35,639 bases of DNA from a virus (lineage: Duplodnaviria > Caudoviricetes), in the IMG/VR virus record IMGVR_UViG_3300025687_004282, positions 1 to 35,639 of that record; one strand, 5' to 3'. The notes beneath the pieces were generated by a model. It saw only the letters and a list, made by a program, of their open reading frames with translations. It was not told where the DNA came from and searched no databases. Position 1 is the stretch's first letter. Each line of letters begins with the position of its first letter. Shown piece by piece: positions 5,462 through 27,272 of the stretch. A program made the position numbers and the translations under genes.

Positions 5462-7633
5462 TCAGTCGGGGCGGGACTGAGGACCAGACAACAAGCCTTC
5501 CAACTCGCCCTGCGACAGGTTGTTTGCAAGCGCCTGCTCGACATCCGCTGCGGTGACGCCAAGAAGGGCAGCAGCGCCGCCTATGCCATACATGCGGACG
5601 ATGCTGATGAGGCGGTCGTCGAAGACGACATAGTTGCGGGAGCCGTCGCCAGCGCCGCGCGAACCTGCGTCAAGATAGCGGATACCGGGGATTCCAGACC
5701 GAGCCGCGTCTTTTACGTTTGTGGCCGAATGCACCGGGTCTTGGAATAGTCTGAAGCCAAGGTCTTGCCCTGTCATTCCTGTCCAATCCGAAAGACGGCG
5801 CGCCTCGCTATCCAACTGCCGAAGCCGCTCAAATTCCGGTGTCGGGCTGTCAAAGAAACGCGACAGGTCGCCGTCTGGCGCAATCCGCGCCAACCCGGCG
5901 CGGACCTCATCCTTCATCGCGGCGATTTCTTCGGGGGCTGCATATCCAAGTGCGCGCGCCACCTGAGGCTGCTCACTCAGCGGCTTGTCCCAATCAAGGA
6001 AGTCCTCGGGATCGGCGTCAATGCGGACTTCATACATGCGGCCAAGTTTGTCAATAGCATCCTTCAATGCTGGGCTGGGATCGTAATCATCAAGCGACCC
6101 ACGAGTCGCTGCTGTAATAGCCTGCGAAGGGTAATCAAAGCCAAGCCAGTCGTTATTCTTTAACTCCTTTAAAAATTGCGTTTGATCTGGCGTAAAATAA
6201 TTTTGCTCTATAAGGTCATCAACTTCTTCAAAATCAGCATCGGCTGGCAATTCTTCAAGAAATTTGTTTTTAATGTTTCCATAAGAAAGACGCTCCCGAT
6301 ACCCGCGCGCCACATCTTCCGCCTCAGCAAAATACAGCCCGCGCCCGTAAGCCTGCGCGCCCTCTCCGGTGCCAATCTTCGACATATCGAACCGCTCGAA
6401 CGTGTGCGGCGAGCCGTGATAAGCGCGGACGCCTTCACGAGCAGGAATGCTAGAAACAGTCTCTCCAGAAGACCCCAAGCCACGCCTAAACTCATCACCA
6501 CCGCTAACCATCCGCGATGTTACGTCAGGCAACATGGAGTTAAAGTCGGCGCTATACCTCTGCTTCGAGCCCTCAAGGCGATACGCAGACATAACATCAG
6601 GCAACGCATCCCTCACCAAATACTCAGCGTCGCCCAAAGCCTCATCGCCAAGGTCACGGCGCGCAACCTCGTCTCTCAACGCAGAGCCAAAGCGGCCAAA
6701 CGAAGACGCAATCTCAGAGGGCTCATGCCCATACTTCTTCAGAGTAAGCCTATCAACATTGCTCATGTTCGAGAAATACTCACCCAACTCAGACGACAGC
6801 GAACGCAACTCGTCATCACCCAACTCGCCAAGCTCGCGAATGTACGCATCAGGATCACTAATCATCAAGTCAACAAACTCGTCCCGCGTACGATCATAGT
6901 CCCTTCTCAAGTTAAAAACGCGAGAACTTGGCTCAAAAATACTCTGCCGGATCCGTTCAATTTCAGCACGGCGCTCACCAATCATCCTCGCAACCTCATC
7001 CTCACCAAGACGCCGTCCAAAAGCGTCAATGTCGTCAAAATAACCACGCTCCAAATCAGAAATCTCACGCTCCAAGCTGTGAGACCGAGCACCCGGATCA
7101 AGTGCCCTCATCTCCTCATAAATGCCCTCTATCCCAGAACGAAGGTCATTAATCCGAGACAGACCAGCGCCAAGCCTCCCACCACCCCTAGCACCAGCAC
7201 GACCCAAGCCCTCCAACATCTCGTCAACAGGCAACGCAGGCGTCGCAGCAGCCGCACCTAACCCAGCCAAAAACTCACGGCGAGACATGTCCATCGGACT
7301 ACGCGAAACCTCAGGCGCACCCGTAGGCGACAAAACCTCCATCAAAACCCTCGCCGCATCCTCACCATACGGCGCAACAGCAGAAACAGCAGGACGAGCA
7401 AGCCTCGAAGCAACAGCACTCGCAACACCCGGGGCAACAAAGCCAGCAGCATTAGTCACGCCACCAACAACATCACCCTCACGCACATCCTTCAAATACT
7501 CCCTGTACGCAGAAACAGGGTTCAACATGTCAGCGCCAGCCAACAATGCACCCAAGCCCTGACGCAACTCAGGAGGGATGTACCGATCCACACGGCGACC
7601 AAACAACGGGTTGCGATATGTTTCTTCGGCCAT
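5462..7633 (-). CDS. Large protein with C-terminal ADP-ribosyltransferase-like (ART-PolyVal-type) domain
   Basis: Likely start MAEETYRN at 7633; RAYHGSPHTFERFDMSKIGTGEGAQAYGRGLYFAE...GIPGIRYLD...NYVVFDD resembles the ART-like domain of phage polyvalent proteins. Confidence 0.75.
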   Translation of the reverse strand: MAEETYRNPLFGRRVDRYIPPELRQGLGALLAGADMLNPVSAYREYLKDVREGDVVGGVTNAAGFVAPGVASAVASRLARPAVSAVAPYGEDAARVLMEVLSPTGAPEVSRSPMDMSRREFLAGLGAAAATPALPVDEMLEGLGRAGARGGGRLGAGLSRINDLRSGIEGIYEEMRALDPGARSHSLEREISDLERGYFDDIDAFGRRLGEDEVARMIGERRAEIERIRQSIFEPSSRVFNLRRDYDRTRDEFVDLMISDPDAYIRELGELGDDELRSLSSELGEYFSNMSNVDRLTLKKYGHEPSEIASSFGRFGSALRDEVARRDLGDEALGDAEYLVRDALPDVMSAYRLEGSKQRYSADFNSMLPDVTSRMVSGGDEFRRGLGSSGETVSSIPAREGVRAYHGSPHTFERFDMSKIGTGEGAQAYGRGLYFAEAEDVARGYRERLSYGNIKNKFLEELPADADFEEVDDLIEQNYFTPDQTQFLKELKNNDWLGFDYPSQAITAATRGSLDDYDPSPALKDAIDKLGRMYEVRIDADPEDFLDWDKPLSEQPQVARALGYAAPEEIAAMKDEVRAGLARIAPDGDLSRFFDSPTPEFERLRQLDSEARRLSDWTGMTGQDLGFRLFQDPVHSATNVKDAARSGIPGIRYLDAGSRGAGDGSRNYVVFDDRLISIVRMYGIGGAAALLGVTAADVEQALANNLSQGELEGLLSGPQSRPD

Positions 7634-7649
7634 GTCGATACATCCGCCA

Positions 7650-7862
7650 AGGGACCCAAAACGCACAGTAACACAAGGGACCCAGAGACGCAAAGGGACC
7701 CGTAGGGACCCGGAACACCATAGGGACCCGGAGACTCAAAGGGACCCGGGCGTTCGAGGGGGACAAGGTGTAGAGAGAGCGTGCCCGCTTTCCCAGAAAA
7801 GGGGGGGTGCCCGGCCCGTTCAAGCCCGATTTGCCCCGACCCGACCCGACGCCAAGGGACCC
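7650..7862. repeat. Seven copies of AGGGACCC in a non-coding region (candidate pac site or genome-end region)
   Basis: AGGGACCC starts at 7650, 7676, 7694, 7704, 7722, 7740 and 7855; G-run at 7801-7807. Confidence 0.8.
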
Positions 7863-7929: not shown

Positions 7930-9030
7930 CTATGCGCGCCGGCGGGGGGCAAGTGCTTCGATCCGGTTTTGCCACCACTCGAATGTGTCATCGTCCAGCC
8001 CGGCCCAAATGCTGGTCATCACTCCGTCGCGGATGGCTGCCGCTCCGGTCTGGGTCGTGGTCCAGCGTTCGCGGATTTCGTAGCGGGCAAGGTCGTCGCC
8101 GTCTCCGTAGGCGTGGCCGTTCGCCTGCTGCGTGTGGGTGATGATGGCGTCGTCGCCATGCTGGGTGCGCATCTCGCTGATGCGGGCGCGGATGTTCACG
8201 GCGGTCGTGCCGGTGATGGTCATCAACTCGCGGACGGTCGCGCCGCCCGGGGTGTTGCGGCAAGCGCGCCAAATCACGTCAATGCGGCTGCCTGCGCGAT
8301 AGGGCCGTTCGGGCGTGACGTGCTCGGTGGTGACGGTCGCGCTGTGGTCCAGCCGCTCGGTCGTGGTCCAGCGGATCAGGTTCAAGAGGAAGAGAACCCA
8401 TGCTTCGACCTTCTCGAACTCGGTGGTGCCTGCTGCCTGCCTGAACTCAATGGTGCCTCTGCTCCACGTCGCAAGGTTGATAGTGCTGAACTTGCCATTG
8501 GTGGCGGCGGACAGTTCGGCGATAGTGCTTGCGGCGGTGATGCGCGCAAGGCGGTTGGTGAGGGGCTGGCAATAGCGGTTGTTGGTGCGGCTCGGCGGGT
8601 GCATGACGTCTATCAAGGGCTGCGCGGCGGTGTAGCGTTGGACTATGTCGCGGACGGCGACGGCGCCCAGCGGCTCGCCAAACAAGGCCGGGACGGGCTG
8701 GCGATTGTGCGCTGCCTCTATGCTGTGGCGGCTGAATGACGCGGGCGTGATGCCATCTGCTAGGGGCGCGTTGCTGATGTGGACATGGAAGCCGCATGCT
8801 CCGTTCACGTCTGCGCCTATGCTCGAAAGGGCGTCCATGACGCTGCGGATATAGCGCCATGCGAAGGGGCAGGGGGCAAGCGGGGGGAAGTTGATTTCGG
8901 CGGTAACGGTGGGCGTCGCGTCGGCTTTCACGGTCATGCCCTCTATTGATGCCTGCGCGAAGGCTGCCTCTATCAGGCGCGGGGTGACGTTGCTGAACTC
9001 AAGTTCTATGCCGAAAGCGTGGTGGGCCAT
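7930..9030 (-). CDS. Putative amidoligase (COOH-NH2 ligase, Amidoligase_2-like) with C-terminal winged HTH
   Basis: Start MAHHAFGIELEF with AGGAG RBS; motifs FGIELEF, CGFHVHI, KFSTINL, TIEFRQ; C-terminal RIDVIWRACR...ATVRELMTITGTTAVNIRARISEMR is HTH-like. Confidence 0.8.
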   Translation of the reverse strand: MAHHAFGIELEFSNVTPRLIEAAFAQASIEGMTVKADATPTVTAEINFPPLAPCPFAWRYIRSVMDALSSIGADVNGACGFHVHISNAPLADGITPASFSRHSIEAAHNRQPVPALFGEPLGAVAVRDIVQRYTAAQPLIDVMHPPSRTNNRYCQPLTNRLARITAASTIAELSAATNGKFSTINLATWSRGTIEFRQAAGTTEFEKVEAWVLFLLNLIRWTTTERLDHSATVTTEHVTPERPYRAGSRIDVIWRACRNTPGGATVRELMTITGTTAVNIRARISEMRTQHGDDAIITHTQQANGHAYGDGDDLARYEIRERWTTTQTGAAAIRDGVMTSIWAGLDDDTFEWWQNRIEALAPRRRA

Positions 9031-9153
9031 GGTCTGTGCTCCTGTTGCTAGCGGCGGGCTGCCTGCCTGCCGTATGATTTTCCTAGCATGTGCTCGGCAT
9101 GTGCTCAAGCGTAATCTTTCCTTTGTTTTCAATGGGTTAGCGTCGGCCAGAGG

Positions 9154-9187: not shown

Positions 9188-9252
9188 GGGTCGAACGTCG
9201 GACAAGGGTCGGACATGGGGCTGGCGAGATCGAGATCGGACGAACGTCGGAC

Positions 9253-9281
9253 AAAAGAAAAGGGGCGGATTGCTCCGCCCC
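9253..9281 (-). terminator. Rho-independent terminator after the GGCT gene
   Basis: Minus strand GGGGCGGA-GCAA-TCCGCCCC-TTTTCTTTT. Confidence 0.85.
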
Positions 9282-9303
9282 GATCCCCGATCCCCGATCC
9301 CGA

Positions 9304-9705
9304 TCAAGCGGCTTCCGCAGCCGCAGCCCGAAGATGCCAATCGTCAAGCCCGAAGTCCCGATACCCCTCTTCGATCATCCGATAGTAGGCAGCGGAAGGC
9401 TCGGCAAACCGATCCTTGCGGTTCATCTTGTAAACCCACCAGCCCCCGTTGATCTGCTCCCGCGTGTAAAGGCGGGGATACCCTTCGAGGTGGTCGAGCG
9501 CCCGAAGGCAAGCTGGGGTGATGGACCAGAGGACGACCGGGGCCACGCTGTCCCGATCCCGAATAATGTCAGCCACGCCCCGAAAGACAACCCGATGCTC
9601 GGGGAGATAGAACCCCCCGAGCGGCTCGGCAGCGGGACATCGAACCTTCATCGCGTCCCGATTGGTGTTCATGCCATAGGCCATGTAAAGCATCCGGTCG
9701 TTCAT
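9304..9705 (-). CDS. Gamma-glutamylcyclotransferase (GGCT/AIG2-like)
   Basis: LYMAYGMN...RCPAAEPLG...LDHLEGYPRLYTR; start at 9705 by ATGA coupling. Confidence 0.85.
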   Translation of the reverse strand: MNDRMLYMAYGMNTNRDAMKVRCPAAEPLGGFYLPEHRVVFRGVADIIRDRDSVAPVVLWSITPACLRALDHLEGYPRLYTREQINGGWWVYKMNRKDRFAEPSAAYYRMIEEGYRDFGLDDWHLRAAAAEAA

Positions 9706-10180: not shown

Positions 10181-10210
10181 CGTTGCCTCCGTTTGCTAGA
10201 ACGTATGCCT

Positions 10211-10239
10211 GTTATATGCCCGATCTCGGCATACGTCAA
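10211..10239 (-). promoter_or_regulatory. Sigma70-type promoter
   Basis: TTGACG-N17-TATAAC; overlaps a TATGCC...GGCATA inverted repeat. Confidence 0.75.
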
Positions 10240-10300: not shown

Positions 10301-10463
10301 CCTAAAGCATGGCGCGAACAATTGTTCGTGTCAATGGTGCATAGCTGTGTGGTATCCAGATACCCCATCCCGAGCCCGATGTGGTATTATGATACCGCTA
10401 CCCGAAAGGCCCGATGGGGGTGGGGGAGAGGCGCATTATTCCCCCCTCCCCCGATCCCCGGGT

Positions 10464-10982
10464 TCAGTTAGATTCTGCTAACCGCTGGTCTTCGATCCCG
10501 ATGATGTTTTGTTCGGGTTCGGCTGGGGTTACATCGACCATGCGATTTTGGGCCTTTTCCATGACTTCGCGGAGTTTCGCGATGATCTGTTCCTTAGTCA
10601 TGGAATCGACGTTTTCGTGGGTAACGTGCGACTTGTTGACGAGCAGTCCGGTGGCTTTGAGGCGTAGTTCCTCGGCTTTGATGGCGGCTGAGATCTTGCC
10701 CTCGCGGAGTGCTTGATCGCGCATGGCTTTGAGGTCGCGAACGGACTTTTCGATTGTGACCCCGAACTTGGCGCGCATTTCGTCGCGCATTTCTTCGAGG
10801 CGTTCTTGGATGAGCGGGTTGTTGAGTAGCTTGACGGCATAGACGTTCGGGTGGGCGAAGCCTGCGTCTCTTGCTGCTGCGGTTTGTGTCATGTCCCGAT
10901 GCAGATAGTTATCGAGGAACTTCTGCTGCTGTGGTGTGAGACGCTTTCGGCCATCTGGCAGTGGTTCCCCTACCTTAGGCAT
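10464..10982 (-). CDS. terS: Terminase small subunit
   Basis: LTPQQQKFLDNYL...TQTAAARDAGF...AVKLLNNPLIQERLEE...SAAIKAEEL is typical of Terminase_2-type TerS. Confidence 0.85.
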   Translation of the reverse strand: MPKVGEPLPDGRKRLTPQQQKFLDNYLHRDMTQTAAARDAGFAHPNVYAVKLLNNPLIQERLEEMRDEMRAKFGVTIEKSVRDLKAMRDQALREGKISAAIKAEELRLKATGLLVNKSHVTHENVDSMTKEQIIAKLREVMEKAQNRMVDVTPAEPEQNIIGIEDQRLAESN

Positions 10983-12084: not shown

Positions 12085-12113
12085 TTGACATGCTCGTTTC
12101 GTGCCCGTAGTAT
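12085..12113 (+). promoter_or_regulatory. Sigma70-type promoter of the plus-strand gene block
   Basis: TTGACA-N17-TAGTAT. Confidence 0.75.
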
Positions 12114-12154
12114 GCCAGTATCTTGACGATTCTAGCAGACGACAGGAGACGCCG

Positions 12155-12331
12155 ATGCGACAACGTGACGCAGGTAAAACCTTCAAAAAGTGCGAGGAGT
12201 GTGACGGCACTGGGGAGGTTGAGGTTGAGTATGTCCGTGGTTCTGGCCCGAACGCTGACTTGGCGTATCGCTTGGACGTGTGCGAGGAGTGTTGGGGTTG
12301 TGGGGAGGTAGAGTGTGATGGCGACGCATGA
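12155..12331 (+). CDS. Small DnaJ-type zinc-finger protein
   Basis: CEECDGTG and CEECWGCG (two CxxCxGxG); AGGAG RBS. Confidence 0.75.
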   Translation: MRQRDAGKTFKKCEECDGTGEVEVEYVRGSGPNADLAYRLDVCEECWGCGEVECDGDA

Positions 12332-14450: not shown

Positions 14451-15197
14451 CTAGCTTCCCAACTGCTTGAACAGTTCGCTGATCTTGATGTCGTCTGCGT
14501 TGATGCGGGCGATGATTTTTTCTGCGTCGTGCGGTGCGTGACGGAATGACAGTCTGAGGATGTCCATCCAGTTGACGTTGTTGCGTGATCTGGTTTCTTC
14601 GATCTGGTTGATGATGAGTTTTCGGCGCAGGTTTTGCGTGCGTTCGATTGCGAGGAGGCGCGGGATTTCCGTGTCGATGTCGCTGTCCCACCCGGAGAAA
14701 TGTTCGGGGAGATCTGAGGTTCGGTGGTAGGTTCCTCGTCCGATCTGTGGGCGGAGGAAGTATGCTCGGTTGATGATGCGATGGATGTTTTGTTCGAGCA
14801 TGTCGTGGCCTCTGGCGATGAGGCGATTGTAGGTGTGCTCGAAGGTTGTGTCTGTGTTGTCGAAGACGACTGTTTGCTGATCGAGAATTGGTCCTGTGTC
14901 GATGTGAGCGTCTAGTTTGTGGATGGTCACGCCGGATGGTGTTCCGTCGTAGTGCGCCCAGAAGTTCGGATGTGCGCCCCTGTTGAGCGGCAGGAGGGAG
15001 ATGTGGACGTTGAAGGCGTCGCAGGTTGCGGTGTCGAGCAGGGCTTTGGGGATGATGTGCCTGTATCCGAAGCTGATGATGATGTCGTAGGGTGCCAGTT
15101 CAGTGACTGGATCTGTTACGCAGAAGGTCTTGTGGCCTTTGGCGTTTAGGAGCGGTGCGATTTTGAGGGCCTCTTGGCCGAGGAGTAGGGCTTTCAT
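14451..15197 (-). CDS. N10-formyl-THF-dependent formyltransferase (sugar N-formyltransferase-like) with C-terminal extension
   Basis: ISFGYRHII, NVHISLLPLNRGAHPNFW, SGVTIH, IDTGPI; ATGA-coupled to pseI. Confidence 0.85.
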   Translation of the reverse strand: MKALLLGQEALKIAPLLNAKGHKTFCVTDPVTELAPYDIIISFGYRHIIPKALLDTATCDAFNVHISLLPLNRGAHPNFWAHYDGTPSGVTIHKLDAHIDTGPILDQQTVVFDNTDTTFEHTYNRLIARGHDMLEQNIHRIINRAYFLRPQIGRGTYHRTSDLPEHFSGWDSDIDTEIPRLLAIERTQNLRRKLIINQIEETRSRNNVNWMDILRLSFRHAPHDAEKIIARINADDIKISELFKQLGS

Positions 15198-16213
15198 TTG
15201 ATGTGTTCCCATGTGACGGGTGTGTTTGGTTGCGCGTCTTTCTTGGCTTTGGTGCCTTCGACGAGCCAGTCGAGATGGGGTGGCAGGCCGTATCCGGGTC
15301 TGACGCTACGGAAGTGTTCGGCTGTGATGGTTTCGCCTGCGGAGACGGGTTTGACGAAGTAGAGTGATCTGCGGAAGACCCTGCTTCCTGCTTCCTCTGG
15401 CTTGTCCTCGAAGCTGTAGTGGAGTGAGTTTGCGGTGTCGTCGAGATCTTTCCGCAGGGCTGCGAGTTGTTCGGGTGTGATGGAGAAGTGATCGTCTGGC
15501 CCGTGGCCGTTGGGGTCGAGGGTGACGTGCTTCTCGATGTATTGTGCGCCGAGGGCAGTCGCTGCGATGGCTGCTGTGTTGTTCATGGTGTGGTCGGACA
15601 GGCCGATGGCGCAGCGAAAGCGACTTGAAAGCTCTTTGATGTTCAGGAGGTAGGAATGTTCGGGTTGCGCTGGGTATGCGGAGATGCAGTGCATGAGCAC
15701 GATCTCTTGTGTGTTGCTGAACTTTGTCCAGTTTGGCTGGGTGCTTTTGACTGCGTTAACGGCGCGTTCGATGTCTGCGAGGGTTGCCATGCCTGTTGAG
15801 ATGAACATGGGCTTCAGGGTTCTGGCTGCGTAGGAGATGAGTGTTGTGTCTGTGATCTCGAAGGACGCGATCTTGTAGGCTGGGCAGTCGAGATCTCGGA
15901 GAATATCGACGGAGGACTTGTCGAAGACGGAGGCGAACAAGTTGATCTTGTTCTTGCGCGCGAAGTCGAAGAGTTCGGGCATCCACCTTAATGGTGTATG
16001 GGCTTCGGTGTAGAGATCGTAAAGGTTAACGGATCTGCCTCTCCAGTTAACCTTGAAGTCTGGGGTGTCTGCTTTGAGTGTGATGGTATCAGGGGTGTAG
16101 GCTTGGAGCTTCACCATATCTGCGCCGTTTTTGGCGCATTCGAAGATGAGTTCCTTTGCGCGGTTGATGTCGCCGCGATGGTTGCCTGAGATTTCTGCGA
16201 TGATCTTTACCAT
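15194..16213 (-). CDS. pseI: Pseudaminic acid synthase (NeuB family with SAF domain)
   Basis: IAEISGNH, VKLQAY, YKIASFEITD, STGMA, HCISAYP, GLSDHT, IEKHVTL, RRSLY...RPGYGLPP. Confidence 0.9.
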   Translation of the reverse strand: MVKIIAEISGNHRGDINRAKELIFECAKNGADMVKLQAYTPDTITLKADTPDFKVNWRGRSVNLYDLYTEAHTPLRWMPELFDFARKNKINLFASVFDKSSVDILRDLDCPAYKIASFEITDTTLISYAARTLKPMFISTGMATLADIERAVNAVKSTQPNWTKFSNTQEIVLMHCISAYPAQPEHSYLLNIKELSSRFRCAIGLSDHTMNNTAAIAATALGAQYIEKHVTLDPNGHGPDDHFSITPEQLAALRKDLDDTANSLHYSFEDKPEEAGSRVFRRSLYFVKPVSAGETITAEHFRSVRPGYGLPPHLDWLVEGTKAKKDAQPNTPVTWEHIK

Positions 16214-16878
16214 GTCGAGAGCAGTGCCTCTGCTGCGTTCCAGTCTGCTGGTTCGTCGATGTCGATGGTGTGCTTGGGCATGATGTAGGCTTTTGTGTGG
16301 ACGCTGATGATGGGTGTCTCTGAGAGCCAGATGTGTGCTGCTGCCCAGTAGAATTGGCCTGCATCGTGGTAGGACTTGGTTAGGTCTTGGGTGCGCTGGC
16401 TCATGGCTGCGGGGCTTCGCGGCATGACGTGGTTGTCTTTCATGAGGTGCAGCGAGCGTTCGATTGGGTGTGCGTATTCTACTGCTGCCATGATGAAGGC
16501 TGCGTCATTGGACGACAGGAGCAGGTTATGACTGCCGATGAGATGTTGCGGCTTGGTGAAGACGGCTGTGGGGTAGAGGCAGCAAACGGGTTCTAGGTGT
16601 TGACAGCCCACTTCTTCGATGGCGTGCGCGATGACGGTCTTGGTTGAGGTGTTGTCGTCGCACAGATGTTCTGGCCTGAGGAGGTAGTGGATGTCGCTGT
16701 CCTTTGCGATGTCGATGGCTTTGGTGTCGTCGGTTGTGACGATGATGTCGTCGAAGATGCCTGACTTCTTTGCGCTGTGGATAATGATGTTGAGGATTGG
16801 GGTGTCGATGAAGGTTGCGGTGTTTTTGCCCGGGATGCGCTTGGACCCTGCGCGCGCTGGGATGATGCAGATTGTCAT
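16207..16878 (-). CDS. pseF: Pseudaminic acid cytidylyltransferase (CMP-Pse synthetase)
   Basis: IIPARAGSKRIPGKN, CCLYPTA, RTQDL...YHDAGQFYW, DIDEPADW. Confidence 0.9.
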   Translation of the reverse strand: MTICIIPARAGSKRIPGKNTATFIDTPILNIIIHSAKKSGIFDDIIVTTDDTKAIDIAKDSDIHYLLRPEHLCDDNTSTKTVIAHAIEEVGCQHLEPVCCLYPTAVFTKPQHLIGSHNLLLSSNDAAFIMAAVEYAHPIERSLHLMKDNHVMPRSPAAMSQRTQDLTKSYHDAGQFYWAAAHIWLSETPIISVHTKAYIMPKHTIDIDEPADWNAAEALLSTW

Positions 16879-17972
16879 GTGTTGGCCTTTACGATGCTGA
16901 TGACTTCTTCTTGTTCTTGGTGGGTGAGTTGTTGGTGGAGTGGCAGGCTGACGGCTTCCTTTGCGTAGCGTTCAGCTTCGGGGAACATTTCTGGCCTTGT
17001 GCCCATTTTTTGCATGCGGATGGAGTAGTATGGGTGTGAGTAGATTGGCCTGTAGTGGAGAGGCGAGTGGTATCCTGCTTGCTTAAGGGCCTCTCTGATG
17101 CCTTCTGCGTTCGGGTGTGTGATGATGTGGAGATGGTGTGCGCTGTGCGCGGTTAGGCTGATTGGTTGCTGGCGAACATGCGAGTGGAGTTCATCAAAGT
17201 ATCGCATGGCCAGTTCCTTGCGGATTTTGATGAAGGTTTCTGCCTTACGGACTTGGGAAGATCCGAGCGCCGCTGCCATGTCTGTCATGCGGTAGTTGTA
17301 GCCTAAGAGATACTGATGGCCGTTCAGCATGCCGTGGCTACGGAAGGCTTGCATGTATTCAGCGATTTTTGGGTCGTTGGTGACTGCCATGCCTCCTTCG
17401 CCTGTTGTGATTGGCTTGACGGGATGGAAGCTGAAGACGGTGATGTCTGAGTATTTGCATGATCCGACAGGCGTTTTTTCGTCGTAGCGTGCGCCGAAAG
17501 CGTGTGCTGCGTCTTCGATAACGCGCACGCCGACTGTTCTGGCAAATGTTCGGATCTCTTTCATGTTCGCTGGCATGCCTGCCATGTGGGTGACAATAAG
17601 GAAGTTCGGTTTGTTTTTGCTGGTTTGCAGTTTGTCCCAGAGGGCTTTGGTTGACATGTTGTAAGTATCTGGGTCGATGTCCACGAAGTCCACATTTGCG
17701 CCGCAGTAGAGGGCGCAGTTTGCTGTGGCTGCGAAGCTGATCGGGCTGACCCAGACAGTATCTCGTTCGCTTACGGAGAGTGCTTTGCAGGCTGCGTGAA
17801 GTGCGGAGGTTGCTGAGTTCATGGCGACGCCGAAGCGTGCGTTCACGGCAGCGCAGACATCTTTCTCGAATTGTTCGACTGCTGGCCCTTGGGTGAGCAT
17901 AGGCGAACGGAGGATCGAGGTGACGGCTTCGATGTCGTCTTCGTCGATCTGCTGACGGCTATAGGGTTTCAT
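16875..17972 (-). CDS. pseC: PLP-dependent UDP-4-keto-sugar aminotransferase (DegT family)
   Basis: PYSRQ, LTQGP, NSATSALH, IEDAAHA, FSFHPVKPITTGEGG, GYNYRMTD. Confidence 0.9.
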   Translation of the reverse strand: MKPYSRQQIDEDDIEAVTSILRSPMLTQGPAVEQFEKDVCAAVNARFGVAMNSATSALHAACKALSVSERDTVWVSPISFAATANCALYCGANVDFVDIDPDTYNMSTKALWDKLQTSKNKPNFLIVTHMAGMPANMKEIRTFARTVGVRVIEDAAHAFGARYDEKTPVGSCKYSDITVFSFHPVKPITTGEGGMAVTNDPKIAEYMQAFRSHGMLNGHQYLLGYNYRMTDMAAALGSSQVRKAETFIKIRKELAMRYFDELHSHVRQQPISLTAHSAHHLHIITHPNAEGIREALKQAGYHSPLHYRPIYSHPYYSIRMQKMGTRPEMFPEAERYAKEAVSLPLHQQLTHQEQEEVISIVKANT

Positions 17973-18924
17973 GTGCGAGCCAGAGCTTGAGTTGTTCGGA
18001 CGTCATCCAGTGTGCGTTGTTGTCGCTTGTGTAGAAGAATGATGGTGAGACAGCGACGCCGTCCTTGATGCGCGTGGGATCTAGGTGCCAGTCGTAGATG
18101 GCTGGCAGGATCTTGAAGTAGTCTTGGTATTCGTAGGTGTATGGCGCGTCTTCGTGGCCAATCATTTGTTCGTGCAGTTTTTCGCCGGGCCGTGTGCCGA
18201 TGATGTCGAGCGACGCTTCTGGCCGAATTGTTCGGGCTATCTCTACGACCTTCATGGAGGGGATCTTGCGAACATAGATCTCGCCTCCGATTGAGTCGTT
18301 GAGTGCGTGCATGACGAGATCCACCCCTTGGTCGAGGGTTATCATGAAGCGTGTCATGCGGATGTCTGTGATGGGGATTTTAGTCCCCACGAAAGATTTG
18401 AAGAGCGGGATGACTGAGCCTCGTGAGCCCATGACGTTGCCGTAGCGCACGACGGAAAAGATTGTGTTGCTGTAGGAGTTCGAGGCGATGAAGAGCTTGT
18501 CTGAGCAGAGTTTGGATGCGCCGTAGAGGTTGACGGGCGAGGATGCCTTGTCGGTAGAGAGGGCTACGACCTTCTTGACGCCGCATGTTGTGGCTGCGTC
18601 GGCTACGTTCATCGCGCCGATGACGTTGGTCTTGATGCACTCGAAGGGATTGTATTCTGCTGACGGGACGATCTTCATGGCTGCGGCATGGATGACGTAA
18701 TCGACGCCGCGCATGGCAAGATGGAGACGCTCGCGGTCACGAACGTCTCCGATGAAGTATTTGACCTGTGGGTGCTTCTTGGCCATTTCCCACTGCTTCA
18801 TTTCGTCTCGCGAGTAGACGATGATGCGAGCGGGTTTGTGGGCAGATGCTGCCTTTACGAACGCTTGGCCGAAGGAGCCTGTGCCCCCTGTTATGAGAAC
18901 GGTGGCATCAGTCAGCAGGGTCAT
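17959..18924 (-). CDS. pseB: UDP-N-acetylglucosamine 4,6-dehydratase (inverting)
   Basis: TGGTGSFG, SRDEMKQ, HAAAMKIVP, EYNPFECIKTN, LSTDKA...YGASK, RYGNVMGSRGSV, RPGEKLHE. Confidence 0.93.
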   Translation of the reverse strand: MTLLTDATVLITGGTGSFGQAFVKAASAHKPARIIVYSRDEMKQWEMAKKHPQVKYFIGDVRDRERLHLAMRGVDYVIHAAAMKIVPSAEYNPFECIKTNVIGAMNVADAATTCGVKKVVALSTDKASSPVNLYGASKLCSDKLFIASNSYSNTIFSVVRYGNVMGSRGSVIPLFKSFVGTKIPITDIRMTRFMITLDQGVDLVMHALNDSIGGEIYVRKIPSMKVVEIARTIRPEASLDIIGTRPGEKLHEQMIGHEDAPYTYEYQDYFKILPAIYDWHLDPTRIKDGVAVSPSFFYTSDNNAHWMTSEQLKLWLAHETL

Positions 18925-19311: not shown

Positions 19312-19339
19312 CTGTGCCTCCTATGTTGCTAGCATGGGA

Positions 19340-19368
19340 AACTTAGTAACTTATTCCACACAAGTCAA
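19340..19368 (-). promoter_or_regulatory. Promoter for the DUF3846-pse operon
   Basis: TTGACT-N17-TAAGTT, then CTAGCAACATAGGAGG leader. Confidence 0.65.
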
Positions 19369-21613: not shown

Positions 21614-21640
21614 GGCGGGGCTTCGGCCCTGCCTTTTTTT
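21614..21640 (+). terminator. Rho-independent terminator oriented on the plus strand
   Basis: GGCGGGGC-TTCG-GCCCTGCC-TTTTTTT. Confidence 0.75.
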
Positions 21641-22463
21641 ATTGGCTATCCCAGCAAGTTTTCTGGAACTCGCACATGCGGCAGGCGAAGTAGTCTTGCG
21701 TCTGCGCAATGCGAGGCAGGATGTCATTGGCTTTTGAAGCGGTCAATATGTTTGCCGCTCGGTCGCTGATGCGTTGGGCAAGCTCGGCATCGAAGGGAAC
21801 GAGTTCGTAGTAGATCTCTGAGGTGTTCTTGTTGACGACAGTGAAGAGCGCAGGGTTCTCTGTCAGGTCCATGTAGGCTTGATAGATGGCTATCTGCGCT
21901 GCGTAGACGGGATTGGCCTTGGCGACACCATGTCGCACGAACTCGTTGAACTTCTTGTCGCTGGCTGTCTTGTTCTCCCAGAGGCATGGGTAGCCGATGA
22001 CGTTAGGACCGCCGCAGATCACGCCGTCTATGTGCCCTGCGATTTGGTCTTCAGCGATGGAGAAGCCGAACTGCTTACCCTTCGAGTCTTGGGTTCTGAG
22101 ATCGAAGCCTGCCATGCGCAGGACCTTGACCATCTCGTCTTCCAGAACATGTCCGAGCGCGAAGATCCGCAGGGTTCTTGCCGGGAACTTTTTGTCCTCG
22201 TCCACGGGGGCATCGAGATAGCGATACTGGATCTTGCGCGAGCATTCGTCGCCCAAGGACGACGCGCCGATGTAAGCACGTCTGGGTTTCTTTTCGTGAT
22301 CCGCGAGGATCGCGGCATCTACCAGAGCCGACACTTGTTCGGCTGTTGGGTCGCTAGAACGGGATGCTTGTAGCTGGCCAAGTGCCAGTTGACTCAACGT
22401 AGGTGCGCTCGATGGTTGCGAGGTCATGCTCATCCTCAATCTTGTTGGCTTCTTGGATACCAT
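21639..22463 (-). CDS. Cas4-like PD-(D/E)XK exonuclease (start uncertain)
   Basis: YIGASSLGDECSR, GHIDG, WENKT, YAAQIAIY, CRMCEFQKTC (four Cys, Fe-S-like). Confidence 0.85.
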   Translation of the reverse strand: MVSKKPTRLRMSMTSQPSSAPTLSQLALGQLQASRSSDPTAEQVSALVDAAILADHEKKPRRAYIGASSLGDECSRKIQYRYLDAPVDEDKKFPARTLRIFALGHVLEDEMVKVLRMAGFDLRTQDSKGKQFGFSIAEDQIAGHIDGVICGGPNVIGYPCLWENKTASDKKFNEFVRHGVAKANPVYAAQIAIYQAYMDLTENPALFTVVNKNTSEIYYELVPFDAELAQRISDRAANILTASKANDILPRIAQTQDYFACRMCEFQKTCWDSQ

Positions 22464-22897: not shown

Positions 22898-23174
22898 TGG
22901 TGGCCATCTCGCCGCCGAGGGCGCTGTAAGCTGCCTTGTCGATCCATGAGTCGGTATGTTCGAGGGTGACTAGGATGCGTGAGGTCTTGAGCCAATCCAT
23001 CATCAGAGCGACATGGGCGGGCGTCAGCTTGCCGTGCGTCTCGATGGCGCGCCAGACGATGACGTTCCATCCGTCAGCAACGCGCTGGTGCATGGATAGT
23101 GCGTCGCCGTAGTCACGGGCGCGGTCGCCGTTGATGAGGTCTTTGGCCTTGTCGAGGATCTCGTCACGCTGCAT
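22884..23174 (-). CDS. DUF6378-like protein
   Basis: LINGDRARDYGD...VALMMDWLKTSR...DSWIDKAAYSALGGE. Confidence 0.75.
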   Translation of the reverse strand: MQRDEILDKAKDLINGDRARDYGDALSMHQRVADGWNVIVWRAIETHGKLTPAHVALMMDWLKTSRILVTLEHTDSWIDKAAYSALGGEMATNGKD

Positions 23175-24852
23175 TTGTGTAGCCCATCTTGTTAATGATG
23201 CTGTCGATTGCCTGCCTGTTCCACAGATAGTTCAGCCAGCACGCTGCCTTGTAGCGTGTCCAAGAGTAGTCCAAACGCCCAACTGTGACACCTTGAAGCG
23301 CGAGAAGTTCTCTTTGCTTTTCGCTTACGGACTCGTCGAGCCAACGCTTTGTCTTGCTGGCAGCTTTGCCATTTTCCACTTCACGCAGGAAATCATCTGC
23401 TGCCGCTGTCGCCTGCACTTTCGTGCCGATTGAGACGACGCGTGTTCTGCCGCCCTTCTCCTTGACGATGGCGATGCAGGTGTCCTGTTCTGTCTCGATG
23501 ACGATGCCGAAGCCATTGAAGCCTGTTGCCATCTTGCATGCGCCAGTGCCGAACGGGTCGATCCAGCGGAATGGAGATCTGCTGATGAGGTCGATCTCGG
23601 TGAGTTCAAATGAGTGAAGTTCTTCCTTCTCGTCTGGCGCTGACGACTTGAAGAGGTGTCCACAATTCTGACACTCCTTCGCGTTTTGAGGGACGAGGAA
23701 CTCGCATTCTGGGCACTCCTTTTGCGGAGCCAAGCCCATTTCTCTTCCGTCATTGCCGTCGAGATCTACGTCATCATCCAGTTCCCCATGGGTCAGGATG
23801 CTCGTGCCGAAGTCGATGACGATGCAGTCTTTCTTGATGAGCCCCGGGTGGATCTCTGGGTCTACAGTCCGCAGACCCCTGCCGATCATCTGCACCATGG
23901 TGGCTTTGTAGGAGCATGGGCGCGTCAGGATGACGCAGGATACGGGCTGGGCGTCAAAGCCTTCGGTGAGGACGGCTACGTTGACGACAACTTGTACGTC
24001 GCCAAACTCTAGGTCGTGCAGGATCTGCTTGCGCTCTTCTCTTGGCGTGTCGCCCGTAACTGTCTTGGCGTTGATGCCTGCGTCTACGAAGGATTTGCAG
24101 ACGCCTTCTGCGTGAGCAATGGTGGAGCAGAACACGACTGTCTTGCGGTCGCCAGCGAGTTCATCCCACTTTTCCACAATGGCGTCGTTGATGACGCGCT
24201 TGTTCATGATCGCTTCGACTTGGTCCATGTCGAAGTCTGAGGCTACCTTTCGCACGCCTTCGAGTTCTGCGCGCACACCCAAGTCGATGACGTAGGCTTT
24301 TGGCGGAACGAGGAAGCCTTCACGGATCAGCGTTGTGAGCTTGATCTGATGAGAGCAGTTGGTGAAGACGTCCTTGAGGCCTTTCTTGTCGCCACGATTT
24401 GGGGTTGCGGTAAAACCTACAACTTCGGCATTTTCGTTGTCCTTGCGGACAGCTTCGATGACCTTGAGGTATGTGTCCGCTGCGACGTGGTGGCTTTCGT
24501 CGATGACCACCATGTCGAACTTGGGGCGCTTGGACAGGTTGTTCTCACGCGAGAGGGTCTGGACCATGGAGAAGATGGCATCGCCACTCCAATCCTTCAT
24601 GGTTCCATCCACGATGCTCGTGGTGATGTAGGGGTTCACCTTGAGGAACTTGGCGCGGTTTTGGGCCACCAGTTCGTCGCGGTGTTGCAGGACAAGAACG
24701 CGCTTGTCCTTCTTATGGCGCTTGCCGATTAGGGCTGAGAGCATGATCGTCTTGCCTGCCCCTGTGGGCGCAACGACGATGGTGTTCTTGTGTTTGTCGA
24801 GAGCCTTACAGGCATCTGCGACAGCGGCTTGCTGATAAGGACGCAGGATCAC
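23164..24852 (-). CDS. Superfamily 2 DExH helicase with zinc ribbon
   Basis: LRPYQ, APTGAGKT, IDESHH, GFTATP, VLTEGFD, QMIGRGLR, CPEC...CQNC. Confidence 0.92.
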   Translation of the reverse strand: MILRPYQQAAVADACKALDKHKNTIVVAPTGAGKTIMLSALIGKRHKKDKRVLVLQHRDELVAQNRAKFLKVNPYITTSIVDGTMKDWSGDAIFSMVQTLSRENNLSKRPKFDMVVIDESHHVAADTYLKVIEAVRKDNENAEVVGFTATPNRGDKKGLKDVFTNCSHQIKLTTLIREGFLVPPKAYVIDLGVRAELEGVRKVASDFDMDQVEAIMNKRVINDAIVEKWDELAGDRKTVVFCSTIAHAEGVCKSFVDAGINAKTVTGDTPREERKQILHDLEFGDVQVVVNVAVLTEGFDAQPVSCVILTRPCSYKATMVQMIGRGLRTVDPEIHPGLIKKDCIVIDFGTSILTHGELDDDVDLDGNDGREMGLAPQKECPECEFLVPQNAKECQNCGHLFKSSAPDEKEELHSFELTEIDLISRSPFRWIDPFGTGACKMATGFNGFGIVIETEQDTCIAIVKEKGGRTRVVSIGTKVQATAAADDFLREVENGKAASKTKRWLDESVSEKQRELLALQGVTVGRLDYSWTRYKAACWLNYLWNRQAIDSIINKMGYTNAA

Positions 24853-24865
24853 GGGACATTCCTTT

Positions 24866-24940
24866 TGCTAGAAGGATGGTGGGGGATTAGCGGCCCGCGT
24901 CCCCCGGCGCGGTCTAGCAGGCAGGAGTTGCCATGCCGCT
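24866..24940 (-). ncRNA. Candidate structured RNA (multi-helix, pseudoknotted) upstream of the helicase gene
   Basis: Five complementary segment pairs within 75 nt (see findings). Confidence 0.55.
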
Positions 24941-24942
24941 CG

Positions 24943-25581
24943 TTATCTTTTGGCCCAAGCAGGGACAGCGCCAGATGTCATCATCTGCGGCTGCTGCTGC
25001 ACGGGCTGGGGCGCATATGTCTGCTGCTGGAACGCAGGCTGCGCCGGTACATGCTGTGTATATTGCGACCCATCGCGCGGCAAGTAGCCGTTGTCCTTGG
25101 GCGTCATGGCGACCATCAAGCGGTTGGTATCCTTGTAGCCGTTGGTGCCTTTCTTGATGCCAACCTTGGCGCAGATCTCCACGCCGTTGAGCGCACCAAC
25201 GCCGGGAAGGTTGCGGGCCTGCTGGGCCTGCGGCGACATGTCCGAGGGATCGAGCCCTGCGGCGCTGTCGATCAGGGCCTTAAGCGTGCGCAGACCAATC
25301 TCCTTGGCCTCGGGCATGCCGGATGCGCCCAGCTTGTCGCCATCGACGAAGACCTTGTCCCAGAACTTGCGGCGGTCGTAGGGTCCACCAATGACAGTGA
25401 ACTCCAGATCCATCCACTTGGCCTTGGTTTCGCGCGCGGCCTTGAACCAGTTGCCTGCTCCATACTCGGGCAGGGAGATCTCGCCCGGCTTGATCGACAT
25501 GATAGCGCGGACGATAGAGCCAGCCGGGATGAGGTCGAACTCACGCTGCTCGCCAGCGGGAACGGAATTGAGGTTAAGCAT
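24943..25581 (-). CDS. DUF669-like single-stranded DNA-binding protein
   Basis: FDLIPAG...LEFTVIGGPYDRRKFW...; Gln/Pro-rich tail ending PAWAKR; follows the AAA_24 ATPase. Confidence 0.7.
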   Translation of the reverse strand: MLNLNSVPAGEQREFDLIPAGSIVRAIMSIKPGEISLPEYGAGNWFKAARETKAKWMDLEFTVIGGPYDRRKFWDKVFVDGDKLGASGMPEAKEIGLRTLKALIDSAAGLDPSDMSPQAQQARNLPGVGALNGVEICAKVGIKKGTNGYKDTNRLMVAMTPKDNGYLPRDGSQYTQHVPAQPAFQQQTYAPQPVQQQPQMMTSGAVPAWAKR

Positions 25582-25592
25582 CGTCAGATCCT

Positions 25593-26444
25593 TTAGCTAG
25601 TGGTTTGGGTGGCGGGGTCAACGAAGGTCAAAGGCCGTGCGGCTTGCGGCACTCCTGACCCCATTTTTGCGATGAGCTTTCCGAGATGAGGTTCTTCCAG
25701 CACATCTAGTCTGCCGCTTCTGTCTTTAGCGGGGTATCCCCACTGATTGAGTGTTTGGCACACGAATGCCCTGTAGGGGCCTTCGTCGCCTGCCATGACC
25801 GCCATCGTGATGACCTCGTCAACGATGCCGGGGAGTTCGCGGCCAGTCTTGCTGCCCTCGATCTGCAAGTCGTATTGCTTGCGGCCATACTCGTCAACAC
25901 TCTCGTCGAGGATGCCAACGAAGATCACGTTCTTCGAGCGGATATGCTGAAGGTGCGTCAGCCACGCCATCATCTCACGCCCGTGCATGCCGTAGACTGC
26001 GCGGGTGTCTACCTTGCCAGTGCGGTCACTGCGATTGTCGGGCTGTTGCGCGCACCAAGTGAAGCAGAGGCGACCGGCCACAGTGATGGAGTCGATGAAG
26101 AGCGATTCGTACTTGTTCATCATCTGCTCGGGATCGCCGTAGAGTTGGCAGACGTAATCGTAGTGGGCTTTTGAGTAGGCCTGATCTTCAGAGAGCGACG
26201 GGTTGAAGCCGCCGAGGAAGCAGGCGAAGTCGCGACACTCGATCCATGTGCGCGGGCGAATGACGTCCACCGGCCATCCTTCGATGGCTGCGTCGCCAGC
26301 TTCCAAGTCCATGAAGAGGGTGGTGTCGCTGTCGAGCGTGCGGGCGAGGGTTGTCTTGCCCACACCGCTCTTGCCGCAGACCACGATCTTGTGGCCGCGA
26401 CGTTCTGCCATGCGCTCTTCGGCAGAGATGATCTTCATCGCCAT
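25593..26444 (-). CDS. AAA_24 (Sak4-like) ATPase
   Basis: GKSGVGKT, DLEAG, FIDSIT, LPGIVDEV, AKDRSGRL; start MAMKIIS at 26444. Confidence 0.85.
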   Translation of the reverse strand: MAMKIISAEERMAERRGHKIVVCGKSGVGKTTLARTLDSDTTLFMDLEAGDAAIEGWPVDVIRPRTWIECRDFACFLGGFNPSLSEDQAYSKAHYDYVCQLYGDPEQMMNKYESLFIDSITVAGRLCFTWCAQQPDNRSDRTGKVDTRAVYGMHGREMMAWLTHLQHIRSKNVIFVGILDESVDEYGRKQYDLQIEGSKTGRELPGIVDEVITMAVMAGDEGPYRAFVCQTLNQWGYPAKDRSGRLDVLEEPHLGKLIAKMGSGVPQAARPLTFVDPATQTTS

Positions 26445-26445
26445 G

Positions 26446-26850
26446 TCATTCCTCCTTGAGATCGACGCTGAACGAGCCAATGCGCGTCGTACGGGCGGGC
26501 TCTAGGACGCGCCGGATATGAGGCGGCGCCATGGTGTATTTGCGCTCATCGACTGCGAGCGTCATCTTGGCATAGTGCTGGGCATCCTCTTCGCTCATCT
26601 CGTTGAGCGCCTTCATCAGGATGCCTTGGTCCCACTCGACCTTCTTGGTGACGACCGCCTTGATCTCCTGATTGCCCTCAGGGATGTAGACAGTGCCGAA
26701 GTCCTTGCCTGTCGTGGCCAAGATGTCCTTAGCCTTCGTCAGATAGGCTTCCTCAAGCTCTGTGTCGATGCGGTCGATGTCCTTCTTGAGAGTAGCGATG
26801 TGCGACTTCAACACCTTACGCTGCTCGAACAGATCAAGCATCTTGCTCAT
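26446..26850 (-). CDS. Phage hypothetical protein, coiled-coil N-terminus
   Basis: KDFGTV...KKVEWDQ; GAGGAG RBS; TTGACG promoter-like element upstream. Confidence 0.7.
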   Translation of the reverse strand: MSKMLDLFEQRKVLKSHIATLKKDIDRIDTELEEAYLTKAKDILATTGKDFGTVYIPEGNQEIKAVVTKKVEWDQGILMKALNEMSEEDAQHYAKMTLAVDERKYTMAPPHIRRVLEPARTTRIGSFSVDLKEE

Positions 26851-26903
26851 GTTGTGGCTCCTCGTTGCTAGTGCCCATTACATGGAATAACTTGCGAGAA
26901 ACG

Positions 26904-27272
26904 TCAAGAGGTTTTTTTGACCACGTTGATCTCGATGCCGAGGACAGCCTGCATGAGCTTCTTTTTCAGTTTGAACTCAGGGGTTTCGACGCCCTTCGCG
27001 TCCTCGACGATTGGCTCCCATGTGCCGTCCTGCTTCTCGCGCTCGTAGGAGAAGTCAGCGACATAGGTGCAGATGAGGACGCCATTGACCGCCAGCTTGT
27101 AGCGCGGCTGTAGCTGTAGGCTACGAACAACTCCTGCTCGTTCGAGAGACTTCAAGTATCCATAGCGTTCGGACTCGAACTTGGAGGCGAAGCGGATGCC
27201 ATCGACGGTTGTCGGCTTTGCGCCGTATTTGTGCCTTGACCTAACTGTTATGGGATTATATGTTCGCGGCAT
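26904..27272 (-). CDS. DUF1064-family PD-(D/E)XK endonuclease
   Basis: KYGAKPTTVDGIRFASKFE, LQPRY, YVADF, VEDAKG, FKLKKKL; likely start MPRTYN at 27272. Confidence 0.85.
   Translation of the reverse strand: MPRTYNPITVRSRHKYGAKPTTVDGIRFASKFESERYGYLKSLERAGVVRSLQLQPRYKLAVNGVLICTYVADFSYEREKQDGTWEPIVEDAKGVETPEFKLKKKLMQAVLGIEINVVKKTS

Follow-up and report, generated by a model that had tools for sequence, protein, structure and literature searches.

A doubly pseudoknotted RNA downstream of the SSB-like gene of marine phages covaries with the predicted start of its own operon mRNA

A 35,639-nucleotide record of an uncultured tailed phage (IMG/VR virus IMGVR_UViG_3300025687_004282, positions 1 to 35,639; this whole stretch is called the window below) carries, between an SSB-like gene and a helicase gene, a structured RNA that is conserved among marine phages. 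The element is a three-way junction of helices P1, P2 and P3 with two pseudoknots, and it represents a real RNA family that had previously not been named. Variation in the strand joining P2 to P3 (J2/3) is matched by complementary variation in the first nucleotides predicted for the mRNA of its own operon and, for this reason, J2/3 likely pairs with the start of that message. On comparative grounds we tentatively favour, with a probability of about 0.45, a reading in which J2/3 acts as a guide that pairs with the operon mRNA start and lowers translation as negative feedback; the brake would likely act on replication and early genes.

All features lie on the minus strand unless marked otherwise. 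The conserved core, from the 5′ tail to the end of the second pseudoknot, spans positions 24881..24942. The covariance model (CM) used for searches, R2, matches it at 24878-24946 with 65 bits; this is its only match in the window, so the element is single-copy there. The 5′ strand (24935..24942), assigned from the sequence, consists of a degenerate tail, CGAGC, running into P1, in which AGCGGC (24940-24935) pairs with GCCGCU (24894-24889; 3′ strand 24889..24894). The P2 hairpin (24920..24932) is formed by GGCA (24932-24929) and UGCC (24923-24920), with a loop, ACUCC, that resembles an anti-Shine-Dalgarno (anti-SD) sequence in this lineage only. It is followed by the guide strand J2/3, UGCUAGA (24913..24919), which has the 5′ tail, a 3′ copy and leader seeds as exchangeable partners, and by the P3 hairpin (24895..24912), CCGCG-CCGGGGGA-CGCGG, with its stem strands at 24912-24908 and 24899-24895. 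The purine run of the P3 loop (L3, GGGGGA, 24905-24900) is the 5′ strand of pseudoknot 2 and pairs with S4, UCCCCC (24881..24886), the two strands being 13 nt apart here. The 3′ copy, UCUAGCA (24866..24872), stands beside the SD of the helicase gene and can pair with UGCUAGA (24919-24913); it is lineage-limited. All five helices proposed in a first-pass annotation, made from the window sequence alone, are present at the minus-strand positions it gave. In the minimum free energy (MFE) fold of the window element, the 3′ copy and the helicase SD are both paired.

Folding of the single sequence gives an MFE z of −0.37, no better than chance. A tighter structure descriptor ranks the element first in the window and in the H and F records, but its score in the window is only 60 against a background of 59; a loose, sequence-free descriptor returns 577 matches in 1.43 Mb, mostly noise. 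With the MFE z and the descriptor score at chance level on a single sequence, the structure is significant only through its homologues. Rfam 15 gave no match over the element in the window at E ≤ 5, and none at the gathering score in eight divergent loci, in line with the earlier impression that the family was not a known one; the motifs of PMC2864571 are included in this comparison to the extent that Rfam contains them. A scan of the window found no intrinsic terminator near the element.

Homologous loci were gathered mainly through the SSB protein, not through the RNA, with at least 75 nt required after the SSB stop codon. The element lies 3′ of the SSB-like gene in 286 of 300 marine-phage loci and is missing from 14, 13 of them from clade D and the other being L401. 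Two collections often supplied the same contig, and 76 distinct cores are left, three mis-parsed rows having been re-anchored by hand. Covariation was assessed in a MAFFT alignment of 61 distinct sequences, some of which came from a pattern scan that fixed GCTAG and G/C runs. The 22 named pairs are paired in 95.6% of cells (83.2% in shuffles, 42-50% in slid controls), and 17 of them show two-sided changes, against 10.6 ± 1.2 in shuffles, which bears out the doubly pseudoknotted fold suspected from the window sequence. P1 is paired in 100% of cells, with two-sided changes in 3/5 pairs and variants such as GCGCC:GGCGU and AGGGC:GCCCU; such changes are also seen in 3/4 pairs of P2, 5/5 pairs of P3 (5-7 bp long) and 4/5 pairs of pseudoknot 2 (L3:S4, 6-8 bp). 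The partner run of L3 sits 2-5 nt 3′ of P1, examples being GGGGGA:UCCCCC, GAGGGAG:CUCCCUC and GGAGGAC:GUCCUCC. P1 varies from 2 to 7 bp across the cores, yet the spacing between the L3 and S4 strands is mostly fixed, at 14 nt in 61/76 cores (range 12-16).

In most relatives the 5′ tail is UCUAGC, which pairs with J2/3 (4-9 nt long). This pairing reaches at least 5 bp in 71/76 cores and covaries, as UCUAGC:GCUAGA, UUAGCG:CGCUAA, UCCAAC:GUUGGA and, in a full replacement, GUGAGU:AUUCAC. Tail and P1 have 2-3 bases in common, so that the tail helix and P1 compete. Unpaired bases are poorly conserved, apart from one junction A in 73/76 cores, and the A-rich linker is variable; this makes a role in structure or pairing more plausible than catalysis or ligand binding. 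The P2 loop is variable as well, reading YYCC in 27/76 cores and having only 4 nt in 16/76, on which grounds the anti-SD half (CUCCUG), noted in the first-pass annotation, was rejected as a conserved second seed.

Of the 70 cores for which downstream sequence is available, 46 have the 3′ copy beside the next SD. Clade B and L256 have the element within the open reading frame (ORF) of a small helix-turn-helix (HTH) gene, in two different frames and ~250 nt from the helicase ribosome-binding site (RBS). The UCUAGCA by the helicase RBS, earlier put forward as the partner of J2/3, is thus present in the window but not general: J2/3 has as its universal partners the 5′ tail of the element itself and the 5′ end predicted for the operon mRNA. 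Taken together, the 46/70 count and the position in clade B and L256 make the proposed cis switch for helicase translation at most a feature of certain lineages, the window's included, and not a universal role.

For the long-range partner, the leader of the operon's first gene was taken in every locus reaching that far, promoters and start sites being inferred from consensus spacing throughout. In the window, the predicted operon promoter (26866..26907) consists of TTGACG at 26907-26902, 17 nt and CATGTA, with a predicted start at ~26872. The operon seed, CUAGCA at 26871-26866, is identified by leader complementarity as the universal long-range partner of J2/3 and lies ~1.9 kb from it. A strict sigma-70 consensus scan calls four sites in the window, the operon promoter not among them; the pattern TTGAC-N(29-36)-CTAGC occurs four times, against 0.39 expected.

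Across the loci, a seed complementary to the locus's own J2/3 sits 3′ of a TTGAC promoter box. The guide:seed pairs are GUCGCUAAA:UUUAGCGAC, UCGCUAGAU:AUCUAGCGA, AGUUGGAA:UUCCAACU, UCUGCUAGAA:UUCUAGCAGA, GUUGGGA:UCCCAAU, UUCAC:GUGAA, GUUAGU:ACUAAC and UGCUAC:GUAGCA; for the guide UGCUAC some clade I rows offer AGCA only, and for UGCUAGA the leader seed is UCUAGUA or CUAGCA. The complementarity of the UGCUAG strand to a family of leaders, noticed at first in the window, is now supported by covariation across these eight seed families. Among 99 distinct leader/guide rows, left after removal of those that lacked a guide or whose start was mis-called, the cognate assignment of guides to seeds has the top score of all 40,320 permutations of the eight families; the families being related, this is a ranking and not a p-value, which lessens what it contributes to the guide reading. 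In an SSB tree of 63 rows, the changes of guide and seed are spread over separate branches, the B-prime state appearing at two places within clade B; in B-prime the leader tracks the guide, and the local tail retains a wobble.

The position of the seed follows the promoter rather than the RBS. Taking the first match within a +30 to +70 window, and a loose pattern for clade I, it starts 33-41 nt from the first T of TTGAC in 93/93 rows outside clade C (standard deviation 1.5), which corresponds to about +1 to +6. In clade C it occupies the loop of a 5′ hairpin of 6-10 bp with a varying stem, at about +10 to +15; leaders outside clade C are otherwise unstructured. Clade D and L401 have neither the knot nor the leader seed. 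When leaders were ranked by duplex energy, with two records scored using a near variant of their own guide, the operon leader came first in six B/C records, third in L256, fourth in H and fifth in G003. Extended pairing with 16S rRNA was considered as the cause of the CUAG leader motif and is unlikely, given the clade-specific seeds.

Further copies of the seed occur at other leaders and early promoters. In the window, CTAGCA-N(0-12)-GGAG is found six times (0.81 expected, 0/100 shuffles), one instance being the antisense strand of the element itself; for CTAGCA alone there is no enrichment (15 against 11.4). CUAGCU stands in the SSB leader (25595..25600), 2 nt before the SD, and is kept across TCT/ACT/CCT-AGC codons in relatives. 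Two predicted early promoters carry CUAGCA followed by an SD, that of a DUF3846 gene (19318..19368, seed 19332-19327) and that of a DUF7249 gene (10187..10239, seed 10199-10194). The amidoligase leader, CUAGCA-A-CAGGAG (9039..9051), is a 6+6 bp complement of P2 loop and guide; the start of the amidoligase gene itself (7930-9030) is probably at 9030 and not at the listed ORF start, 9216. In four W/A genomes the seed lies 1-7 nt before the SD of 7/50, 5/52, 9/57 and 10/67 called genes, with 0.5-0.9 expected. In the window lineage and clade A it precedes the SDs of SSB and the helicase and also those of several early genes, of which some are encoded on the other strand. Six minus-strand leaders of the window each form a two-part duplex over the SD when the ACUCC loop is included, at −12 to −18 kcal/mol; by guide pairing alone they reach −8.5 to −10.2 kcal/mol, against −6.2 kcal/mol for the window tail, whose bases are shared with P1. 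In other lineages, UUAGC of clade F and ACUAAC of L256, each at about three early leaders, fit their own guides.

The site at 12132, once counted among the target leaders, is probably unrelated and part of a different element, because a resembling leader is also kept in clade B and in clade D, which has no knot. Clades A, B and D (G003 47169, G004 46904, G005 18102, G067 5927) have, directly 3′ of their capsid gene, a leader with CTGACA...CTGACACTAGCC..GACAGGAG that is possibly a separate conserved RNA or operator; the site in the window (12110-12155, plus strand) resembles the 3′ half of this leader.

A small HTH gene is found 3′ of SSB only in clades B and D and in L256 (L215:6621-6950, L257:6640-6924, L256:6639-6917). 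In the clades with this gene, the palindrome GCAAT-N-ATTGC lies between the −35 and −10 boxes of two to five early promoters each (records G004, G067, G068 and G078-G084). Gene and palindrome are likely a repressor-operator pair, and the loss of the knot in clade D fits a history in which one brake took the place of another. Clades that lack the HTH gene have CCCA...TGGGA inverted repeats in promoter spacers (G003, G005, G087, G077, G086), a possible operator.

We prefer repression as the outcome of the pairing because the extra seed copies are all adjacent to an RBS, and because the lineage with the HTH gene has operator-like sites and clade D lacks the knot. The local tail, which begins 0-3 nt past the SSB stop codon in most clades, would mask the guide by default. 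The leader could then displace the tail, upon which P1 would gain the 2-3 pairs whose bases it shares with it; a ribosome ending at the SSB stop, or trimming of the RNA, may help to unmask the guide. The knot likely resists decay, accumulates and acts in cis or in trans. In the window, where the degenerate tail would leave the guide free, J2/3 may go to the copy at the helicase RBS (7 bp) or to the leaders (5-7 bp), and the ACUCC loop could also cover a leader SD if P2 opens. All these dynamic steps are proposed from the fold, the competing partners, the covariation and the positions.

Several observations weigh against a translational brake guided in this way. Unlike the near-constant distance to the −35 box, the distance from seed to start codon varies from 14 to 62 nt (standard deviation 5.3), which places the seed beyond the ribosome footprint in several clades. 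With only ~5 bp, the clade E leader has no advantage over the local tail. By duplex energy the operon leader falls outside the top five in the window, G005, G076, G077 and G066, so that the seed alone is not selective in these lineages. In clade B, seed sites before an SD number 3/68 genes against 1.8 expected, which counts against a general role in trans, and in clade H the other early leaders fail to match its guide. Clade D, without a knot, has a motif of its own, GCUUAAC, at about +2 to +4 of three to five early promoters (G067, G083, G084; e.g. L483:11895, 12608 and 16324), for which no partner was found by CM (four partial D records), text, hairpin or descriptor searches. The partnerless motif of clade D and the mismatch in clade H mean that the seeds at other early genes may be shared promoter sequence rather than targets. 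The anti-SD loop is not conserved, pairing of an SD to CUCC is partly trivial, and the argument from the HTH gene concerns one lineage only. Of three runs examined as contigs, the sole RNA run yielded contigs that miss the element, a result neither for nor against. For the clade D motif, a hairpin with a GUUAAGC loop was also considered as a partner and rejected, its loop not being conserved, and a protective 5′ hairpin in the clade D leaders was not supported.

Among the alternatives, a protective closed loop stands best, unlikely as we judge it to be. Here the knot is the 3′ end of a message comprising the first gene, the Sak4-like gene and SSB, and docks the 5′ end of that message. Neither end would then be open to RNase E, RNase J or 3′ exonucleases, and ribosomes would perhaps be returned to the message, with the result that more SSB than helicase is made. 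A seed fixed at about +1 to +6, and thus anchored to the start, suits protection better than repression; the leaders are otherwise unstructured, and the knot is always directly 3′ of SSB. Precedents exist in the hly 3′ untranslated region (UTR), which shields prsA2 from RNase J1 (PMC8722363), and in hbs (PMC8406224). The 5′ end in clade C is already a hairpin of 6-10 bp with the seed in its loop and so needs no hiding, and no promoter accompanies the seed copies that precede the SDs of SSB and the helicase, both of which argue against protection. Full-length RNase J-like genes are present in 61/61 genomes of the candidate host order (that of the metagenome-assembled genome, MAG, holding L280), but all fall below the family cut-off. 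Repression and closed-loop protection can coexist. A bolder variant, unlikely too and a shade more so, is an exonuclease-resistant knot that captures 5′ ends: it would swap its tail for the triphosphate ends of chosen transcripts, loop its own mRNA and cap, park or silence early mRNAs in trans, possibly with chemistry at the captured end, and would be a new class of phage RNA.

Alternatively, the knot could be a switch and the leader its signal, an intact 5′ end or short abortive transcripts displacing the local strand and so affecting the downstream helicase-primase genes at the level of processing, pausing or translation; the cis switch of the first-pass annotation is of this kind. The partners of J2/3 are mutually exclusive, the seeds fall within the length of abortive products, and both the 3′ copy by the next SD and the sequestered helicase SD in the MFE fold of the window would suit it. 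An output linked to the RBS is absent from clades B, C, F, G and H and from L256, though, the clade C seed lies further in, within a hairpin loop, and neither the missing terminator nor a knot placed within an ORF in two frames (clade B and L256) is what such a switch would lead one to expect; we regard it as distinctly improbable.

It is less probable still that the RNA is catalytic or binds a ligand, with J2/3 guiding a substrate (cleavage, capping or ligation at the tail or at transcript 5′ ends) or the junction binding a metabolite. The double pseudoknot is compact, its exchangeable helix is substrate-like and at a fixed distance from transcript starts and, with the 3′ copy paired, the helix order is that of ribozymes like that of hepatitis delta virus (HDV). 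Against this, almost no unpaired base is invariant beyond the junction A and the A-rich linker, the outer helix of an HDV-like arrangement is missing in 24/70 cores, and no Rfam ribozyme or riboswitch match was found. A riboswitch is disfavoured by the lack of invariant unpaired ligand-pocket nucleotides, only one junction A being near-invariant and the other loops being free to vary. The core of HDV-like ribozymes has a P3 of 3 bp, a P1.1 of 1-2 bp, a P4 and a conserved catalytic C in J4/2. The nested helix order is identical when J2/3 pairs with the 3′ copy, as is possible in the window; here P3 has 5-7 bp, the L3 pseudoknot 6-8 bp, there is neither a P4 nor a conserved catalytic C strand, and the linker is variable. 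By these core features, and with the outer helix present in 46/70 cores only, the element does not qualify as an HDV-like ribozyme.

We give little credence to an operator of the T4 gene 32 type, in which a pseudoknot nucleates binding of the SSB-like protein and nearby translation is repressed: the gp32 precedent exists (PMC10690425), and in many clades an A/C/U linker without structure, and then an RBS, come after the pseudoknot by the SSB-like gene, but the element lies downstream of the SSB stop in 286/286 loci rather than upstream of the gene, is within an ORF in clade B, and the guide-leader covariation would be left unexplained. A role as single-stranded DNA structure or as DNA sites for proteins (origin or operator), suggested by the location in a replication operon and by the palindromic CTAG recurring near promoters, can be dismissed almost entirely, as G-U type pairs occur on the mRNA-sense strand only, seeds always have one orientation and the guide the other, and where the guide changes by a single base, the leader changes to the complement.

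A guide that pairs with its own message start would belong with 3′-to-5′ leader pairing or phage antisense control, on a scaffold matched to no family. Pairing of 3′ with 5′ UTR represses icaR in S. aureus (PMC3868564), 3′-to-5′ pairing protects B. subtilis hbs from nucleases (PMC8406224), and the Listeria hly 3′ UTR protects prsA2 from RNase J1 by pairing (PMC8722363). The element shares with these cases a post-coding sequence that would pair, in cis or in trans, with a 5′ leader, and here the complementarity is conserved. The differences are that the strand expected to pair is a junction, 5-10 nt long, within a double pseudoknot that covaries and has a local decoy built in, and that the element lies inside a phage operon, with its partner 1.9 kb away and the seed tied to a predicted start, not to an SD. 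Covering of the SD as in icaR is possible in the window lineage; across clades the seed is 14-62 nt from the start codon.

By layout, the element resembles flaviviral class 1 exoribonuclease-resistant RNAs (xrRNAs), which have 0-1 nt between P2 and P3 and a ring of 15-16 nt (PMC8374639) and also block bacterial RNase J1 (PMC5760640); the xrRNAs covered in that first source, a review, are all from eukaryotic RNA viruses. Common features are a size of ~65 nt, a P1-P2-P3 three-way junction, a latch from L3 to the 3′ side, a loop of fixed length (14 nt here, measured between the two strands and not as a crystallographic ring) and a 5′ end that pairs into the junction, here with J2/3. J2/3 itself has 4-9 nt and is a pairing partner, against 0-1 nt in class 1 xrRNAs, so the element is not filed as one; it belongs to DNA phages, its 5′ helix is exchangeable for a distant leader, and the likeness is one of layout only. 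Coaxial pseudoknot pairing in mRNA can shield downstream sites from scanning by RNase E (PMC9943677). Those obstacles are engineered or riboswitch cases without a long-range guide.

P1 C4 and P4 CI, whose logic the first-pass annotation had invoked, are small structured phage antisense RNAs with exposed seeds against the leaders of their own transcripts; C4 is in Rfam. A short seed complementary to a target in the leader of its own transcript is found here as well. The element differs from them in matching no C4 model, in its fold, in having one universal seed instead of two and in lying in a replication operon, not an immunity region.

Among the candidates of Fremin et al. 2023, DNAVirus_4843 or DNAVirus_3730, neither of which carries a name, may already be this element, going by their table descriptions only: these have 61 and 68 nt and 146 and 44 sequences, come from marine Caudovirales and lie in some cases ≤25 nt from ResIII-type helicase genes (PMC10690425). 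The tables and passages of that paper give neither a name nor a pseudoknot or long-range partner for them, and short motifs of the element were not found in its supplementary files 3-6. In searches of the open-access literature we found no description of a structured element internal to a DNA-phage operon that is paired by covariation with the start of the operon's own mRNA. The eight natural guide-seed pairs are ready compensatory variants for specificity swaps in a small and directly testable system. If the guide can be reprogrammed, it would make a compact RNA tool for addressing 5′ ends, and if the proposed braking is true, early genes in a widespread group of uncultured marine phages would be controlled at the RNA level as well.

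The window is a 35.6-kb virus record; near-complete relatives have 55-56 kb. Its minus-strand replication operon runs in the order 134-aa gene, Sak4-like AAA_24 gene, SSB-like gene, element, helicase of superfamily 2 (SF2; ResIII), nuclease and primase-helicase. By annotation, the first gene (phrog_2480) is at 26446..26850 and is followed by the Sak4-like gene (ORF 25593-26480). The SSB-like OB-fold gene (24943..25581, phrog_2300), whose stop codon adjoins the element, was assigned by model and fold search. A Pfam search of its product gave no match; the structural model has a predicted local distance difference test (pLDDT) score of 83, and its top fold matches are PrgE (an OB-fold DNA-binding protein, E 6e-5) and then RPA/SSB chains, so that the label SSB-like is fair for the modelled fold. 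The gene identities in the first-pass annotation therefore hold for the SF2 (ResIII) DNA helicase downstream (23164..24852, GTG start, SD AAGGA at 24864-24860) and, by fold though not by Pfam, for the SSB upstream. A fusion of SSB and helicase by readthrough or frameshift was rejected, since the spacing of 96-107 nt occurs in all frames. In L022 (1889-2305), and also in L042, L075, L078, L079 and L280, a PDDEXK_14 endonuclease gene stands between element and helicase and takes over the RBS with the 3′ seed copy. In L227, L232, L239 and L245, ~40 nt upstream of the element, an in-frame insertion resembles a partial duplicate of the 5′ hairpin (UUAGUG...CACUAA).

The host is likely a marine alphaproteobacterium, as suggested by the capsid protein of one relative, with 69% identity to Pelagibacter phage HTVC023P and 56% to Roseobacter phages CRP-901/902, and by the presence of the locus on two MAG contigs labelled Rhodobacteraceae and Maricaulis. 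Among 151 cellular genomes searched, one has the element, namely the phage-like MAG contig itself. The cultured relatives AcaML1, Wolbachia WO and MAnkyphage have an SSB homologue, and the element was not found in them. All records with a match contain one clear copy; there are two weak second CM matches, with E 0.03 and 0.86. The former, at G087:29613-29687, is a G/C-rich stretch resembling window positions 10380-10470 (minus strand), where G-rich/C-rich hairpins lie directly 3′ of the small terminase gene.

Elsewhere in the window, a strong hairpin resembling an intrinsic terminator (21614-21641, plus strand) lies just ahead of the start of the primase-helicase gene, on the strand that does not carry the replication operon, and suggests antisense transcription opposite this operon. 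Between the GGCT and amidoligase genes (9240-9400, minus strand) there are GC-rich hairpins and GGGGATC repeats with a terminator-like stem at the end; this region has a weak PrrB/RsmZ match, with E 3.1 and under the gathering score. A large virion-type protein is encoded at 5462-7693 (minus strand) and contains an ART-PolyVal ADP-ribosyltransferase domain (PF18760, above the cut-off). At 14451-18924 (minus strand), a nucleotide-sugar cluster of epimerase, aminotransferase, cytidylyltransferase, NeuB-SAF synthase and formyltransferase genes resembles a nonulosonic-acid pathway carried by the phage.
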